Positions 38,401 through 41,790 of a stretch of DNA of 45,409 bases are shown here, piece by piece. The stretch's first letter is position 1. Each line of letters begins with the position of its first letter. The stretch lies in the NCBI GenBank assembly GCA_031290835.1, contig JAISLN010000302.1:1-45409 (forward strand), in the 5' to 3' direction. The notes below the pieces were generated by a model. That model had not been told where the DNA came from and did not search any database. It saw nothing but the letters and a program-made list of their open reading frames with translations. This stretch comes from Prevotellaceae bacterium. GTDB taxonomy: Bacteria > Bacteroidota > Bacteroidia > Bacteroidales > UBA932. The position numbers were made by a program, and so were the translations under genes.

Positions 38401-38482
38401 ACGCGCGCGCGCGCGCGTGTGTGTGTGTGTGTGTGTGTGTGTGTGTGTGTGTGTGTGTGTGTGTGTGTGTGTGTGTGTGTGT
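38401..38482. repeat. Compound dinucleotide microsatellite (CG)8(GT)33: 82 nt of uninterrupted alternating purine-pyrimidine
   Basis: Read directly from the sequence: a(cg)8 occupies 38402-38417 and merges into (gt)33 at 38417-38482. Confidence 0.98.
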
Positions 38483-38732
38483 TCCTATTACCAATAATTA
38501 TGCCAAGCCCGTCCGGAAACAGTAAGCGAGAGGATATTTTTACGCTATACGAAAAGTGGCGCATATATTGCCTTTAAATTAAAATATGAAAAGTGTGCTT
38601 TACAACGTAAAATTTTGAAGCGGGCGAAGTGAGCTCACGAACACCGTAAAAAAAGCAAAAGCGAGTAGCTGCGCTTCGCGTTATTCAATTTCCCTCGCGC
38701 TTTGCGCAATTCAAAATTCAAAATTTCTTCCG

Positions 38733-39797
38733 CTATTTTTCTACCTCCAGCTTTGCGGCAGGCAGCGGATTTTTCACCATCTCGGCATACTCCCTGCGGT
38801 GCTTGTACGTATCGCAAGCCAGGTATAGCGCCGCCCGAAACGAATCGGGCGAAGCCGTATCCTTGCCCGCTATATCGTACGCCGTGCCGTGCGTGGGCGA
38901 AGTTCGCACTATGGGCAAGCCGCAGGTGTAGTGCACGCTTGAGCTTGTGCCGTACGACAGCGTCTTGAAGGGCGCCAAGCCCTGGTCGTGGTACATGGCA
39001 AGCACAGCGTCAAATCGGCTAGCGCAGTTGGAGCCGAAAAAGCTGTCGGAGGCGTACGGGCCAAACGCCAATATCTTGTTCTTGATAGCCTCCTCCACCA
39101 CCGGAATCACAATATCCAGCTCCTCCGAGCCAATCAGCCCGCCGTCGCCCGCGTGGGGGTTAAGGCCCAGCACCGCTATGCGGGGTTTGGGTATCAAAAA
39201 GTCTTCCTTGAGCGTAGCGTTGAGCAGCCTTAGCTTGCTCATGACGAGCTCCTTGCTTATGGCCGTGGGAACTTGCGAAATCGGAATATGGCCGGTAACA
39301 ACCCCCACGCGCACGGAGCTGCCCACAAACAGCATGAGATAGTTTTTGACGCCAAAAACATCTGCCAAAAATTCGGTGTGCCCCGGAAACAGGCGGTTGA
39401 TGGACGAAATGTACTGCCTGCCGTAAGGCAGCGTTACCAAAACCTGAATTTTGCCGCTTTTCCAATCGCGAATTGCCGCCTCAAGCGCCGCCAGCGCACC
39501 TATCCCCGATACATCCGACGCTTTGCCGAACTCCACCTTCACCTCATCATCCATAACGTTGATAATGTTGGCGCGCTTGGGGTTGGCGTCGTCGGCAGAG
39601 CGGATAATGTTGAAGTTGAAGTTTTCAACCCCGCTTATCGTTTTGCGGTGAAAGGCGCCGACCTTGGGCGAGCCATATACAATGGGGGTGCACATTTCCA
39701 GCACACGAGGGTCTATAAGCGTTTTGATAATAACCTCATAGCCAATACCGTTGATATCGCCTTGTGTTATACCAACTTTTATCTTGGAGTCTGCCAT
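38733..39797 (-). CDS. pdxA: 4-hydroxythreonine-4-phosphate dehydrogenase
   Basis: 354 aa. Motifs: GITQGDINGIGYEVIIK, PGHTEFLA, LNPHAGDGG, MYHDQGL, VRTSPTHGTAYDIAGK. Confidence 0.95.
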   Translation of the reverse strand: MADSKIKVGITQGDINGIGYEVIIKTLIDPRVLEMCTPIVYGSPKVGAFHRKTISGVENFNFNIIRSADDANPKRANIINVMDDEVKVEFGKASDVSGIGALAALEAAIRDWKSGKIQVLVTLPYGRQYISSINRLFPGHTEFLADVFGVKNYLMLFVGSSVRVGVVTGHIPISQVPTAISKELVMSKLRLLNATLKEDFLIPKPRIAVLGLNPHAGDGGLIGSEELDIVIPVVEEAIKNKILAFGPYASDSFFGSNCASRFDAVLAMYHDQGLAPFKTLSYGTSSSVHYTCGLPIVRTSPTHGTAYDIAGKDTASPDSFRAALYLACDTYKHRREYAEMVKNPLPAAKLEVEK

Positions 39798-40161
39798 GAT
39801 ATAGATAGTGTTAGCGTATTATGTTTTTTGCCTTTGAACCATAGAGAGGTAGCAAAAATACTAAATAAATAGCTGCGCGTAACATTTTGTGGCTGTTAAA
39901 TAAGCTTACCGCTAAGGAAAATAGGCCACCCCGCTATTTACAGCAAATTGTAAATCAACCTGATAAAAACAAGCTTTGCAGCCGATGCCGGCGAAACCGT
40001 CGGCTATGCAGAAAAACCTTTTTTACGCAAAAAAATAAATGTAAAATTTTTCAAATCAAATAATTGGCTAAATTTAACACTTCGAGAGGCAATGATACGC
40101 CTCCCGACGTAGCAATACACCCTTTAATTTGCTTACTTTTGTGCCGCTTTCCGTGCACATT

Positions 40162-40191
40162 TTTACGGAGCAATAATTTACGGAGTAATAA
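40162..40191 (+). repeat. Two abutting 15-nt direct repeats, TTTACGGAG[C/T]AATAA, in the leader of the PLP-enzyme gene
   Basis: 40162-40176 and 40177-40191 differ at one position. The repeat ends 24 nt before the ATG at 40216. Confidence 0.9.
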
Positions 40192-40215
40192 CCCAAGCAG
40201 CTTGTAAAACACATT

Positions 40216-41418
40216 ATGGCAACACTACCACAGCACCATCCGCTCAAAGGCAACCCCGCTCCGGCGCAGGGCTTTGCCACCAGAGCTGTTCACGCGGGCG
40301 AAAAACCCGACTTTCGCGAAGGGGCCACCGGCGACGTGGCGGCTCCCATACACCTCGCCACCACCTACGCGCGGCAAAAGGTAGCCCAACCGGGACGCTA
40401 CGAGTACGTCCGCTCGCAAAATCCTACCCGCGAAGCGCTGGAAGCAAAGCTGGCGTCGCTGGAAAACGCCCGCTACGGGCTGGCGTTCAGCTCGGGAATG
40501 GCCGCCGAAACAACCGCCCTGCTCGCCTTGCTCAAGGCGGGCGACCACGTCATTGCCTTCGACGACCTGTACGGCGGAACAAAGCGCCTGTTTGAGCAAG
40601 GATTCGCCAACTTTGGCGTCGAAACCTCATACGTGGACGCCACCAACGCCTCGCTCGTGGAAAAAGCGGTGAAGCCCTCCAGCAAAATGGTGTGGGTGGA
40701 GTCGCCCACAAACCCGCTGATGAAGCTCGCCGACATACGGGCTATTGCCGAAATCGCCCGAAAGCACGGGCTGATTTTGGTGGTGGACAACACTTTCCTA
40801 TCGCCCTACTTCCAAAAACCGCTGGACTTGGGCGCCGACGTTGTGGTGCACAGCATCACCAAGTACCTCGGCGGGCACAGCGACGTGCTGGGCGGCGCCT
40901 TGCTGGTCAACAGCGAGCAGCTCTACGAGCGGTTGCAGTTCCACCAAAATTCGTCGGGAGCCGTGCTGCCGCCTTTTGACTCCTACCTTACGCTGCGCGG
41001 CATAAAAACGCTGGCGGTGCGCATGGAGCAGCACCAAAAAAACGCGCTGGCGGTGGCGCAATTTCTGGAAAAGCACCCAAAGGTGAGCCGGGTGCTCTAC
41101 CCCGGGCTGGAGAGCCACCCGCAGCACGAGCTGGCAAAGGCGCAGGCAAGCGGCTTTGGCGGAATGCTCTCGTTTGACGTAAAAGGAGCTGGCGCCGACG
41201 CAGAAACATTTTTGGAGCGCCTGCGCGTGTTTACCTTAGCCGAAAGCTTGGGTGGCGTGGAGTCGCTCATTGAGCAGCCCGCGCAAATGACGCACGTCTC
41301 GCTCGAAAAAGCCGAGCGCGAAAAAATAGGCATCACCGATACCCTCATCCGCGTATCGGTGGGCATAGAAGAGGTGGCGGACTTAATTGCAGACCTCAAG
41401 CAAGCGCTGGAGTGGTAG
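40216..41418 (+). CDS. Cys/Met-metabolism PLP-dependent enzyme (cystathionine gamma-lyase / gamma-synthase family)
   Basis: 400 aa. Motifs: YVRSQNPTREALE, FSSGMAA, VVDNTFLSPY, HSITKYLGGHSD (PLP lysine), ESLGGVESL. Confidence 0.9.
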   Translation: MATLPQHHPLKGNPAPAQGFATRAVHAGEKPDFREGATGDVAAPIHLATTYARQKVAQPGRYEYVRSQNPTREALEAKLASLENARYGLAFSSGMAAETTALLALLKAGDHVIAFDDLYGGTKRLFEQGFANFGVETSYVDATNASLVEKAVKPSSKMVWVESPTNPLMKLADIRAIAEIARKHGLILVVDNTFLSPYFQKPLDLGADVVVHSITKYLGGHSDVLGGALLVNSEQLYERLQFHQNSSGAVLPPFDSYLTLRGIKTLAVRMEQHQKNALAVAQFLEKHPKVSRVLYPGLESHPQHELAKAQASGFGGMLSFDVKGAGADAETFLERLRVFTLAESLGGVESLIEQPAQMTHVSLEKAEREKIGITDTLIRVSVGIEEVADLIADLKQALEW

Positions 41419-41740
41419 GGTAAGCCGCAAAATATTTTTTACGCCCCCCACCACCGCTGTCCGGTAAAATTCCTACCGAATGTCGCCCGCAACGATTATT
41501 TTTTCAGGAAAATTTATTTTTACCGGACGGTAGCGCGTGAGCATAATAGTTAAAACACGTAATGTAGCGTTTTTTAGCTGTTTGAGCACAATATCTTTCT
41601 AAAAAGATTCCTACATTTGCCGCTGTACTCCGAATAGCCTTTTTATAGTAGCGCTTCAAATCAACACTTGTACCTATTATGACATCGCTGCTCCATACAT
41701 TACTACCGCCGCACATATACAACATGTGGATATACATGCT

Positions 41741-41790
41741 GTGTGTGTGTGTGTGTGTGTGTGTGTGTGTGTGTGTGTGTGTGTGTGTGT
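41741..41790. repeat. (GT)25 dinucleotide microsatellite
   Basis: Read directly from the sequence. It has the same strand orientation as the 38417-38482 tract. Confidence 0.98.

Follow-up and report, generated by a model that had tools for sequence, protein, structure and literature searches.

Candidate slippage-switch cassettes built on long GT/AC repeats at the heads of surface-protein and nutrient-uptake operons in a Prevotellaceae genome

The two long dinucleotide repeats in the window (the whole of the 45,409-nt contig JAISLN010000302.1 of Prevotellaceae bacterium assembly GCA_031290835.1) are part of a large set in this genome, and each of these tracts is probably the slippage-prone repeat of a regulatory cassette that heads a surface or nutrient-uptake operon. 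We observed a recurrent sequence architecture at these loci, its excess over controls, its distribution in the lineage, and differences in repeat length between species; from these we infer translation of a leader, function of a terminator, and switching. In layout, the cassette resembles the leader-peptide/terminator switch of Streptococcus gallolyticus pil1.

Tract 1 is a perfect, intergenic (GT)33 run (38417–38482), identified, as was tract 2, by a tandem-repeat scan and direct reading. Its sense strand is the minus strand, that of the AraC/PUL operon, on which it reads (AC)33 and codes for Thr-His repeats. Fused to it is a (CG)8 run (38402–38417, same sense, from the tandem-repeat scan), continuous with (GT)33 and together with it spanning 38402–38482. 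This is the sole CG run of 8 units genome-wide; at the orthologous locus in the congener G011, its position is occupied by a CAAGCAGTTACG box. Tract 2 is a perfect, intergenic (TG)25.5 run (41740–41790) on the plus strand; its sense strand is (UG)n, making it the only GT-sense cassette of the genome. An Rfam search returned no known RNA family and only two eukaryotic matches, both far below threshold and on the low-complexity run. As the earlier note described, GT lies on the plus strand in both tracts, and the only real genes enclosed are pdxA (38733–39797, minus strand; PF04166, E 1e-99) and a Cys/Met-metabolism PLP enzyme gene (metC; 40216–41418, plus strand; PF01053, E 2e-159), both core genes. 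The head of a PUL, with an AraC regulator and SusC, does lie to the left of tract 1, and an island of ORFs and a C11 peptidase to the right of tract 2, where GC content is 43–44% versus 53.5% for the genome. It had also been held that two tracts within 3.3 kb would be very unlikely by chance, but when the tracts are placed uniformly on the real contigs, 2.5 pairs within 3.4 kb arise on average, and at least one pair arises with a probability of 0.92; one was observed. The tracts bracket pdxA–metC because two accessory operons are transcribed outward from this segment, with the candidate switches at their heads.

Counting runs of 8 or more units, this gut-type Bacteroidales genome (2.69 Mb) contains 51–53 GT/AC tracts, which lie at the 5' heads of surface-protein and PUL operons in a fixed orientation: once every tract is written as (GT)n, only two of 40 loci depart from the rule that the gene on the left points away from the tract. 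The genes under putative control include ~11 SusC-like receptors, ~nine FGE-sulfatase-domain proteins, AraC, hutH, GH36, and GT2 genes, and four large surface proteins, of which the two that were scanned both have YDG domains and one has BspA-type LRR repeats as well. A T9SS cargo protein is also among the tract-associated genes. The tracts are thus associated with surface, uptake, and host-interaction functions.

The proposed switch would be ordered as follows on the sense strand. A Bacteroidetes promoter (-7 box TAnnTTTG) would be followed by an untranslated leader of ~50 nt, an ATG, and 20–40 leader codons, and then by (AC)n, which would be read as Thr-His repeats and lacks a stop in any frame. 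Beyond (AC)n, stops usually close two of the frames inside 40 nt and the remaining one is open for 200–400 nt, with a predicted hairpin and T run 60–125 nt past the tract and the gene 150–500 nt past it. Gain or loss of a single AC unit would shift the leader frame. In the short frame (OFF), the ribosome would stop ahead of the hairpin, which would then form and end transcription; in the long frame (ON), the ribosome would traverse the hairpin, often ending near the start codon of the gene. The proximity of the long-frame end to the gene start hints at translational coupling as well. Ribosome-dependent antitermination is not known from Bacteroidota, which counts against this reading.

Each element of this layout is enriched at the tracts. 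In 32 of 37 loci there is a leader ATG 60–145 nt upstream whose frame stays open as far as the tract (shuffles, 7.6 +/- 2.5, maximum 17), and 17 loci of the 32 with leaders have a perfect TAnnTTTG 20–85 nt before that ATG (shuffles, 0.26, maximum 3). Read in the opposite sense, such an ATG is found in 6 of 39 loci and the box at tract 2 only. One frame stopping within 40 nt combined with another open for at least 190 nt is present in 28 of 38 loci, as compared with 5.6 +/- 2.1 in shuffles (maximum 14 in 1000). A hairpin with a T run starts 40–150 nt past the tract in 23 of 39 loci; the opposite strand has one in 2 of 39, shuffles give 1.8, and control upstream regions 10 of 285. About 40% of loci fail this strict terminator criterion. 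Because many cassettes are paralogous copies, the loci cannot be treated as independent, and comparison with shuffles exaggerates significance. The hairpin sequences vary by cassette type and show compensatory changes between species. The realized frames are mixed (~10 long and ~11 short), and since assembled tract lengths top out near 116 nt, these frames may differ from those in cells.

At tract 1, the predicted leader ORF (38211–38564, minus strand) is 117 amino acids long at the assembled repeat number and resembles other leaders of type X. It contains a repeat whose unit is not divisible by three. Its ATG, at 38564, lies 82 nt before (AC)33, and 27 codons precede the Thr-His repeats. Counted from the tract, the three frames stop at +31, +108, and +203, and a terminator-like hairpin of 11 pairs with a T run is at +62 to +94 (38319–38352, minus strand); at its assembled length the tract is in a long frame, which continues through the terminator to the stop 203 nt past the tract. 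The RNA past the tract has a predicted fold with z = -5.65. Between tract and terminator is a conserved 'P' box (38353–38392, minus strand; alignment A1 and model R1). The AraC-family regulator downstream of the cassette (37229–38122, minus strand) is the first gene of the PUL, and its orthologue in G011 (87% amino acid identity) likewise has (AC)34, a P box, and a hairpin. Upstream of the leader, homology to sister cassettes ends within the type X 5' untranslated region (38565–38615, minus strand), where a 12-nt gap deletes the TA of the expected TAnnTTTG; no recognizable -7 box was found at tract 1 where sister cassettes carry one. This stretch is probably the right-hand junction of the PUL insert, and the promoter box appears to have been lost there. 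We consider it somewhat probable that tract 1 belongs to a slippage switch cassette of AraC and the mannan PUL.

Tract 2 is probably the repeat of a related cassette that points at the lipoprotein/C11 island. A perfect Bacteroidetes -7 box (TACATTTG, 41612–41619, plus strand), kept as TACCTTTG in the congener G003, lies 60 nt upstream of the ATG of a 58-amino acid leader ORF (41679–41855, plus strand; MTSLLH..., Cys-Val repeats, and a tail). This ATG, at 41679, is 61 nt before (UG)25, and G003 shares the start of the leader. Stops in the three frames are at +62, +73, and +126, and no short OFF frame was found among them; nor was a convincing terminator found past the tract, where predicted RNA folding is no better than that of shuffles (z = -0.18). 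As it has no clear terminator, this cassette may be only partial, or may operate in another way. Tract 2 sits in a unique stretch of 479 nt with its limits at 41419 and about 41898; the right-hand junction of this stretch is marked by a remnant (41898–42036, plus strand) that is like the 3' end of a lipoprotein paralogue and at which homology to G010 begins. The presumed downstream unit (42037–45319, plus strand) consists of three paralogous ORFs of ~205 amino acids, for which a family search yielded no match, and a C11 (clostripain-family) peptidase. We dismissed a minus-strand reading of tract 2, with a 77-amino acid ORF (41504–41737) that begins 3 nt away, because this ORF lacks a promoter box, cassette modules, and a Pfam match and enters the 3' end of metC. 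The plus-strand reading is preferred on account of its perfect -7 box and the leader conserved in G003.

Repeats of (GT)20 or longer occur in 10 of 14 congeners, nine of which have dozens of tracts. Ten further genera of the family gave no such repeat, and 16 other families gave one tract in all. Model R1, which describes the conserved post-tract block and hairpin, matches nine of the 10 tract-bearing congeners. The exception is G004, whose single tract has a box, a leader ATG, and (AC)n, with stops at +6, +44, and +52 and a hairpin at +35 to +57; searches of the four tract-less congeners with the same model gave no match. Lengths of orthologous tracts differ between species: 49, 65, and 100 nt in three species at the SusC locus on contig C157, 33 versus 34 units at AraC, and 55 versus at least 100 nt at the locus on C46. 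A scan of metagenome contigs for the exact 35-nt flanks gave no match.

The tracts had been suggested to mark recombination or insertion hot spots, and synteny provides part of the background for such a role. A divergent pdxA and metC pair occurs in five congeners, and homology to relatives extends no further than the pdxA stop (38733) on one side and the metC stop codon (41418) on the other; the DNA to the right of metC is non-syntenic with relatives. The segment between the tracts is core, and the outer sides are both accessory or non-syntenic, as had been proposed; the further statement that the tracts lie exactly at the junctions is only approximate, as the distance from the end of homology is 250 nt for tract 1 and 321 nt for tract 2. 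At 12 loci in 11 congeners, a 195-amino acid gene follows within a few tens of nucleotides of pdxA and is itself followed by a giant gene. The copies of these ancestral downstream neighbors in the present genome are on contig C310, the end of which overlaps the start of the window, so the whole ~40-kb PUL is an insert between pdxA and the 195-amino acid gene.

If the tracts were mainly recombination substrates, RecA would join accessory modules to the core at perfectly identical GT runs present at many loci, and could delete or amplify the DNA between direct copies. Tract lengths of 51–66 bp suffice for homologous recombination, and a deletion between the two tracts would take out pdxA, metC, and both cassette heads. 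Both tracts lie in accessory DNA within 110–320 nt of synteny breaks. The cassette halves on either side of the tract combine variously (A+X, A+Y, A+W, C+X, C+Y, and C+W), a pattern that exchange in or close to the tracts could produce, and the AraC cassette has a leader of type X in this genome versus type W in G011, where the side from tract to AraC is common to both genomes and the far side is unrelated. Two blocks that are not adjacent in five relatives are joined at the C35 locus, where a pair of tracts encloses two FGE-domain genes. However, the right junction of the PUL insert is ~125 nt past tract 1, at the cassette promoter and outside the tract, and its left edge (C310:4140–4960) lacks a tract as well as any other repeat with a further genomic copy; at the window loci, no rearrangement junction was found inside the repeats. 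The tract at the C157 SusC locus is syntenic on both flanks in G003, and a synteny break around C203:29.1–30.0 kb has no tract at all. In the breakpoint comparison at C35 and C203, the tract-less control junction was also broken, the relatives are fragmented, and tracts break contigs. The inverted sense of tract 2 cannot arise by tract-to-tract exchange, and recombination alone leaves the fixed orientation, promoter, leader ORF, frame layout, and terminator unexplained. We consider it improbable that recombination is the main role of the tracts. A combined reading, which we also hold to be unlikely, is that the cassettes are both switches and portable joints, each carrying the same perfect AC/GT run, with run-mediated exchange swapping promoter-leader heads and moving PULs or blocks of surface genes. 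Exchange within or beside AC/GT runs would then always regenerate a working unit of head, tract, and terminator, and a subclade of one genus would couple stochastic ON/OFF switching to reshuffling of its repertoire at ~50 loci for surface structures and glycan uptake, with long dinucleotide microsatellites standing in for the invertases of Bacteroides.

Could the tracts, as long alternating purine–pyrimidine runs beside a promoter, instead act at the level of DNA, as a Z-DNA or supercoil-sensitive element or a spacer of variable length between the core promoter and a site upstream, with no role for translation? Runs such as (CG)8(GT)33 are classic Z-formers, every tract is close to a promoter, and some cassette types have promoter-like boxes past the tract too. 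The best boxes are nevertheless those ahead of a leader ATG whose frame leads into the tract, and frame-dependent stops and long open frames would be purposeless in such an element, which we regard as very unlikely.

We assign a similarly small likelihood to neutral microsatellites, devoid of regulatory role, that spread with a dispersed cassette or with duplications of an upstream region in a slippage-biased lineage. The restriction of the expansion to one lineage, the paralogy of many cassettes, and the decayed, interrupted edges of some tracts would fit such an origin. Loss of mismatch repair was dismissed as the cause of the expansion, as all 15 congeners have an intact MutS and 13 of the 15 also an intact MutL (the other two are incomplete assemblies, 72% and 79% complete). 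Moreover, the tracts are pure and positionally stable across species 15–25% apart in DNA, the target genes are a typical phase-variation repertoire, and the same layout recurs in another family: in G032, all six tracts, which are shorter, have a box, a leader ATG, and (AC)n amid unrelated flanks. An artefact of assembly or contamination (eukaryotic microsatellite reads or assembly-graph tips) might be suspected from the 19 of 53 tracts at contig ends and from lengths clustered near 94 and 116 nt, but is next to impossible given that 34 tracts are contig-internal with bacterial genes on both sides and that flanks are conserved at orthologous positions across independently assembled species, and it is refuted for the two window tracts, both of which are internal with unique flanks.

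Phase variation of SusC/SusD, capsules, and surface structures in Bacteroidales is ascribed to DNA invertases (PMC11868660). If the slippage-switch reading is true, a whole lineage uses repeat slippage in leader ORFs together with a terminator at some fifty loci per genome, PULs included, and a mechanism described in the single species of pil1 becomes a widespread regulatory design. Inferences of glycan use from metagenomes would then have to allow for ON and OFF states, and the poor assembly of such genomes would follow from the breaking of contigs at tracts. For annotation, long GT/AC runs would mark operon heads rather than junk or contamination.

The closest known system is pil1 of S. gallolyticus, whose frame-dependent leader/terminator logic was shown experimentally (Danne et al. 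2014, PMC3894217). As in pil1 (and pil3), the proposed cassette would have a promoter, a short leader ORF with a non-triplet repeat, and a stem-loop terminator before structural genes; the frame would determine whether the leader stops ahead of the hairpin (39 bp in pil1 and 31 nt at tract 1), inside it, or beyond it; repeat runs are comparable in length (22 x 5 = 110 nt in pil1); and the targets are surface structures. The unit, however, is GCAGA in pil1 and the dinucleotide AC (once UG) here, and the host is a Gram-negative Bacteroidales with another promoter type and little use of Shine-Dalgarno sequences. There are also ~50 candidate cassettes per genome rather than one or two, and the long frame is often 200–400 nt and ends near the gene start. 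The simple-sequence contingency loci of Haemophilus, Neisseria, Campylobacter, and Helicobacter (reviewed in PMC11868660) similarly have hypermutable repeats at many surface-related genes of host-associated bacteria, with repeat numbers that differ between close relatives. Those repeats, most of them much shorter, are found within the structural gene or between elements of the promoter, whereas here the repeat is in a separate putative leader ORF with a predicted terminator after it, and tracts of 25–58 or more units far exceed those of most studied contingency loci. SusC/SusD and capsule loci of Bacteroides have invertible promoters (Nakayama-Imaohji et al. 2009, as cited in PMC11868660), and inversion is the only mechanism mentioned for Bacteroides in that 2025 review. 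The taxonomic order and the kind of target (SusC-like receptors, PULs, and surface structures) are shared, as presumably is the population-level purpose, but those promoters undergo site-specific inversion by invertases, and neither inverted repeats nor an invertase is involved at the window loci. Two further systems share single aspects of the cassettes, namely a tract of its own before each of many surface-protein genes and the assembly of a few modules in varied combinations. In the vlhA (pMGA) family of Mycoplasma gallisepticum, which has the first, (GAA)n upstream of each gene gates expression in a large surface-protein family; the tract there is trinucleotide, lies upstream of the promoter, and has one permissive length, with no leader ORF or terminator. 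The REP/BIME elements of enterobacteria, dispersed mosaic intergenic repeats that include palindromic hairpins, have the second, and differ from the cassettes described here in lacking a microsatellite, a fixed orientation upstream of genes, a promoter, and a leader ORF.

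Tandem-repeat scanning and direct reading agree on two perfect tracts with GT on the plus strand: (GT)33 at 38417–38482 (tract 1), entered straight from a (CG)8 run at 38402–38417, and (TG)25.5 at 41740–41790 (tract 2). As the earlier note had stated, they enclose just two genes: pdxA (38733–39797, minus strand) and metC, a Cys/Met-metabolism PLP enzyme gene (40216–41418, plus strand). Left of tract 1 are the AraC regulator gene (37229–38122, minus strand) and a long minus-strand polysaccharide utilisation locus (PUL) headed by a SusC-like gene; right of tract 2, in DNA of 43–44% GC, are three ORFs of ~205 amino acids with no assigned family, and a C11 peptidase. 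The window is a complete contig (C302) of a 2.69-Mb assembly in 315 contigs that is 87% complete.

The whole-assembly scan found 51–53 GT/AC tracts of at least 8 units, most having 25–58 units. Contig ends carry 19 of them, which indicates that tracts break the assembly. Two tracts within 3.3 kb had been thought very unlikely to arise by chance, a view that does not hold in this genome: uniform placement of 51 tracts on the real contigs gives a mean of 2.5 pairs within 3.4 kb, with a probability of 0.92 for at least one, and one was observed. The tracts are a trait of the lineage. Of 14 other species of the genus, 10 carry (GT)20, and nine of these 10 have dozens of tracts. It is absent from 10 other genera of the family, and 16 other families yielded one single tract. 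Loss of mismatch repair is ruled out as the cause of the expansion, since MutS and MutL are present. The genome has another dispersed family of simple repeats, made of arrays of the heptamer AATTCAA: one lies just 3’ of the pdxA stop codon (38708–38725, within the region 38687–38733), and over 50 other contigs have short arrays, in many cases several each.

Tract flanks sort into a few sequence families. With the tracts written as (GT)n, the left-hand gene reads away from the tract in all but 2 of 40 loci, at a distance of 100–550 nt. On the sense strand of the controlled gene, an upstream module leads into (AC)n, followed by a short box (often CAAGCAGTTACG) or palindrome, then a conserved block, a hairpin and its T run, and finally the gene. 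Tract-headed genes include about 11 SusC-like receptors, about nine FGE-sulfatase-domain proteins, four large surface proteins (YDG domains in both of those scanned, BspA-type LRR in one), and AraC, hutH, GH36, GT2, and other genes. There are about 20 copies of the conserved block and hairpin, 15 directly after a tract. A covariance model of this element recovered copies in 9 of 10 tract-bearing congeners, the exception being the one-tract G004, and no copy in four congeners without tracts. The FGE-domain proteins are ~440-amino acid paralogues, each with its own cassette (contigs C35, C101, C126, C137, C164, C183, and C278), in which the long leader frame runs on through ~21-nt tandem repeats before the gene. 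On C35 (4987–9507, locus L094), two of these genes lie tail to tail between two tracts.

Each element of the layout of the streptococcal pil1 switch was tested across the tract loci. An ATG 60–145 nt upstream, with its frame open into the tract, was present at 32 of 37 loci versus 7.6 ± 2.5 in locally shuffled sequence, a comparison that, like the others with shuffles, includes paralogous copies and is not fully independent. In the opposite-sense control, such an ATG occurred in just 6 of 39 loci. A perfect Bacteroidetes −7 box (TAnnTTTG) precedes the leader ATG by 20–85 nt at 17 of 32 loci (0.26 in shuffles), and leader peptides are kept within each module type. After the tract, one frame stops within 40 nt while another stays open for at least 190 nt in 28 of 38 loci (5.6 ± 2.1 in shuffles). 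A hairpin and T run starting 40–150 nt after the tract was found at 23 of 39 loci, whereas the opposite strand gave 2 of 39 and control upstream regions 10 of 285. The long frame often terminates within about 40 nt of the start codon of the gene, which suggests translational coupling in addition to terminator control. At assembled lengths, which give the frames of the consensus sequence, about ten cassettes are in the long frame and eleven in the short.

G004, with its one (AC)27, and G032, which belongs to another family of the same order and has six tracts of 15–20 units, provide an independent replicate with unrelated flanks. The box, leader ATG, and AC run are present in the G004 tract and in all six of G032; in G004, a hairpin spans +35 to +57, with stops at +6, +44, and +52 around it. 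In G032 (loci L156, L157, L159, and L160), a conserved motif, about CGCAAACCCGCGTGGCTGT, lies before the AC tracts, with CTTAAACA.CC and a T-rich run behind them. Architecture and sequence comparison together favor, with moderate confidence, the reading of the AC-repeat cassettes as pil1-like switches.

At orthologous cassettes, tract lengths differ between species, among assemblies that are short-read MAGs in which tracts longer than ~116 nt cannot be assembled. The tract heading a SusC gene on C157 is 49 nt in this genome, 65 nt in G011, and 100 nt in G003 (both relatives), and the C46 cassette is 55 versus at least 100 nt between species. The AraC cassette has 33 units here and 34 in G011, where it also has an extra CAAGCAGTTACG box and another leader type. 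A tract heads hutH in four of five assessable species.

Synteny with congeners bears out the claim that a core island is flanked on both sides by accessory blocks. At 12 loci in 11 congeners, pdxA has a 195-amino acid gene and then a ~1800-amino acid gene after it, starting no more than a few tens of nucleotides away. Here these two genes sit on contig C310, whose last ~117 nt (5207–5323) are identical to window positions 1–117 and lie within a lipoprotein gene of repeated domains; C310 4826–4960 and 5099–5233, in these near-identical domains, are 98.5% identical. C310 and the window contig are almost certainly adjacent, the assembly almost certainly having been broken between them by the lipoprotein repeats. 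With the ancestral pdxA neighbors on C310 and this overlap, the whole PUL, ~40 kb, is best read as an insert separating the 195-amino acid gene from pdxA. The five closest congeners lack a DNA homologue for most of the PUL. A related PUL lies at another place in G011 (contig C272, locus L009), with the head (tract and AraC) and tail genes in common and a different SusC: relative to window 1–38122, AraC is 87% identical in amino acids, the tail genes 80–88% in DNA, and SusC 32%. The PUL reads as a mosaic with its center replaced. On the right, homology to relatives stops at the metC stop codon, and the downstream DNA varies among them. The 479 nt from 41419 to ~41897, containing tract 2, are unique, and from 41898 homology begins to a lipoprotein paralogue of the relative G010. 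Positions 41898–42036 match the interior of a longer open frame on G010 contig C198, are non-coding here, and, lying upstream of the first ~205-amino acid ORF, look like the 3’ end of a lipoprotein paralogue that has otherwise been lost.

The tracts had also been placed exactly at the core–accessory junctions and proposed as recombination hot spots joining accessory modules to the core. They are indeed near the junctions, but both are 110–320 nt inside accessory DNA, and no tract is present at the left edge of the PUL insert. Cassette halves are found in several combinations, which is compatible with exchange near tracts. However, the C157 tract is syntenic on both flanks in G003, synteny is also interrupted at tract-free places, and the window junctions fall outside the tracts, so that hot spots are an improbable explanation. 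If the two window tracts recombined with each other, pdxA, metC, and the heads of both cassettes would be lost. On contig C203 (29095–30050, locus L097), a 292-amino acid gene has different neighbors on both sides in G003, G011, G007, and G005, one side being C93-like in all four and the other C264-like in G003 and G011. No tract occurs at these breaks, and the segment would be either frequently rearranged or part of a chimeric contig.

Tract 1 has the appearance of a canonical cassette on the minus strand. Its leader starts at an ATG at 38564 (minus strand), with 27 leader codons followed by Thr-His repeats. After the tract, stop codons close the three frames at +31, +108, and +203, and the long frame is the one realized at the assembled length; the hairpin is at 38352–38325 and the AraC ATG at 38122. 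Downstream of the tract, the RNA is much more stably folded than shuffled sequence (z = −5.65); the leader part is unstructured. The G011 orthologue retains the block, AraC, and the hairpin with compensatory changes. In an alignment with three sister cassettes, 12 nt are missing from the window copy at the expected start of the −7 box, and homology to them stops at about 38607–38615. From this, the PUL insert seems to stop precisely at the cassette promoter. The cassette may now be inactive, or rely on read-through from pdxA. At 38610–38653, in the interval from the pdxA terminator to the cassette, is a ~40-nt motif with GAAGTGAGCTCACGAACAC, which also occurs on C189, C5, C277, C52, C155, and C26.

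For tract 2, a minus-strand cassette is rejected, as that strand has no ATG, box, or modules. On the plus strand, a perfect −7 box, TACATTTG (41612–41619), precedes a leader ATG at 41679, with twenty leader codons and then Cys-Val repeats. This is the sole cassette in the genome with the repeat read as (UG)n. A copy in G003, 69% identical with the box and leader start kept, adjoins a tract at a contig end, and its neighboring genes differ from those of the window. The post-tract frames stop at +62, +73, and +126, and there is no convincing terminator after the tract; the junction at 41898 may have truncated this cassette, or it may work differently. Both window cassettes point outward, one at the PUL and the other at the lipoprotein/C11 island, and GT is on the same DNA strand at both tracts because the cassettes have opposite repeat sense.

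Classical contingency loci differ from these cassettes in having shorter repeats, located inside the structural gene or promoter. A 2025 review attributes SusC/SusD and capsule phase variation in Bacteroides to invertases only and makes no mention of leader-peptide repeats for that genus (PMC11868660). No paper on Bacteroidales microsatellites of the AC or GT type came up in text searches of the literature. The closest described system is the pil1 switch of Streptococcus gallolyticus, in which 22 GCAGA repeats lie within a leader-peptide gene (PMC3894217). In its OFF frame, translation stops 39 bp before a terminator, whereas in the ON frames the stop is within or after the terminator and the ribosome blocks hairpin formation (PMC3894217). 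The cassettes described here, recognized from sequence alone, differ from pil1 in repeat unit, host phylum, number of loci, and their long ON frames.
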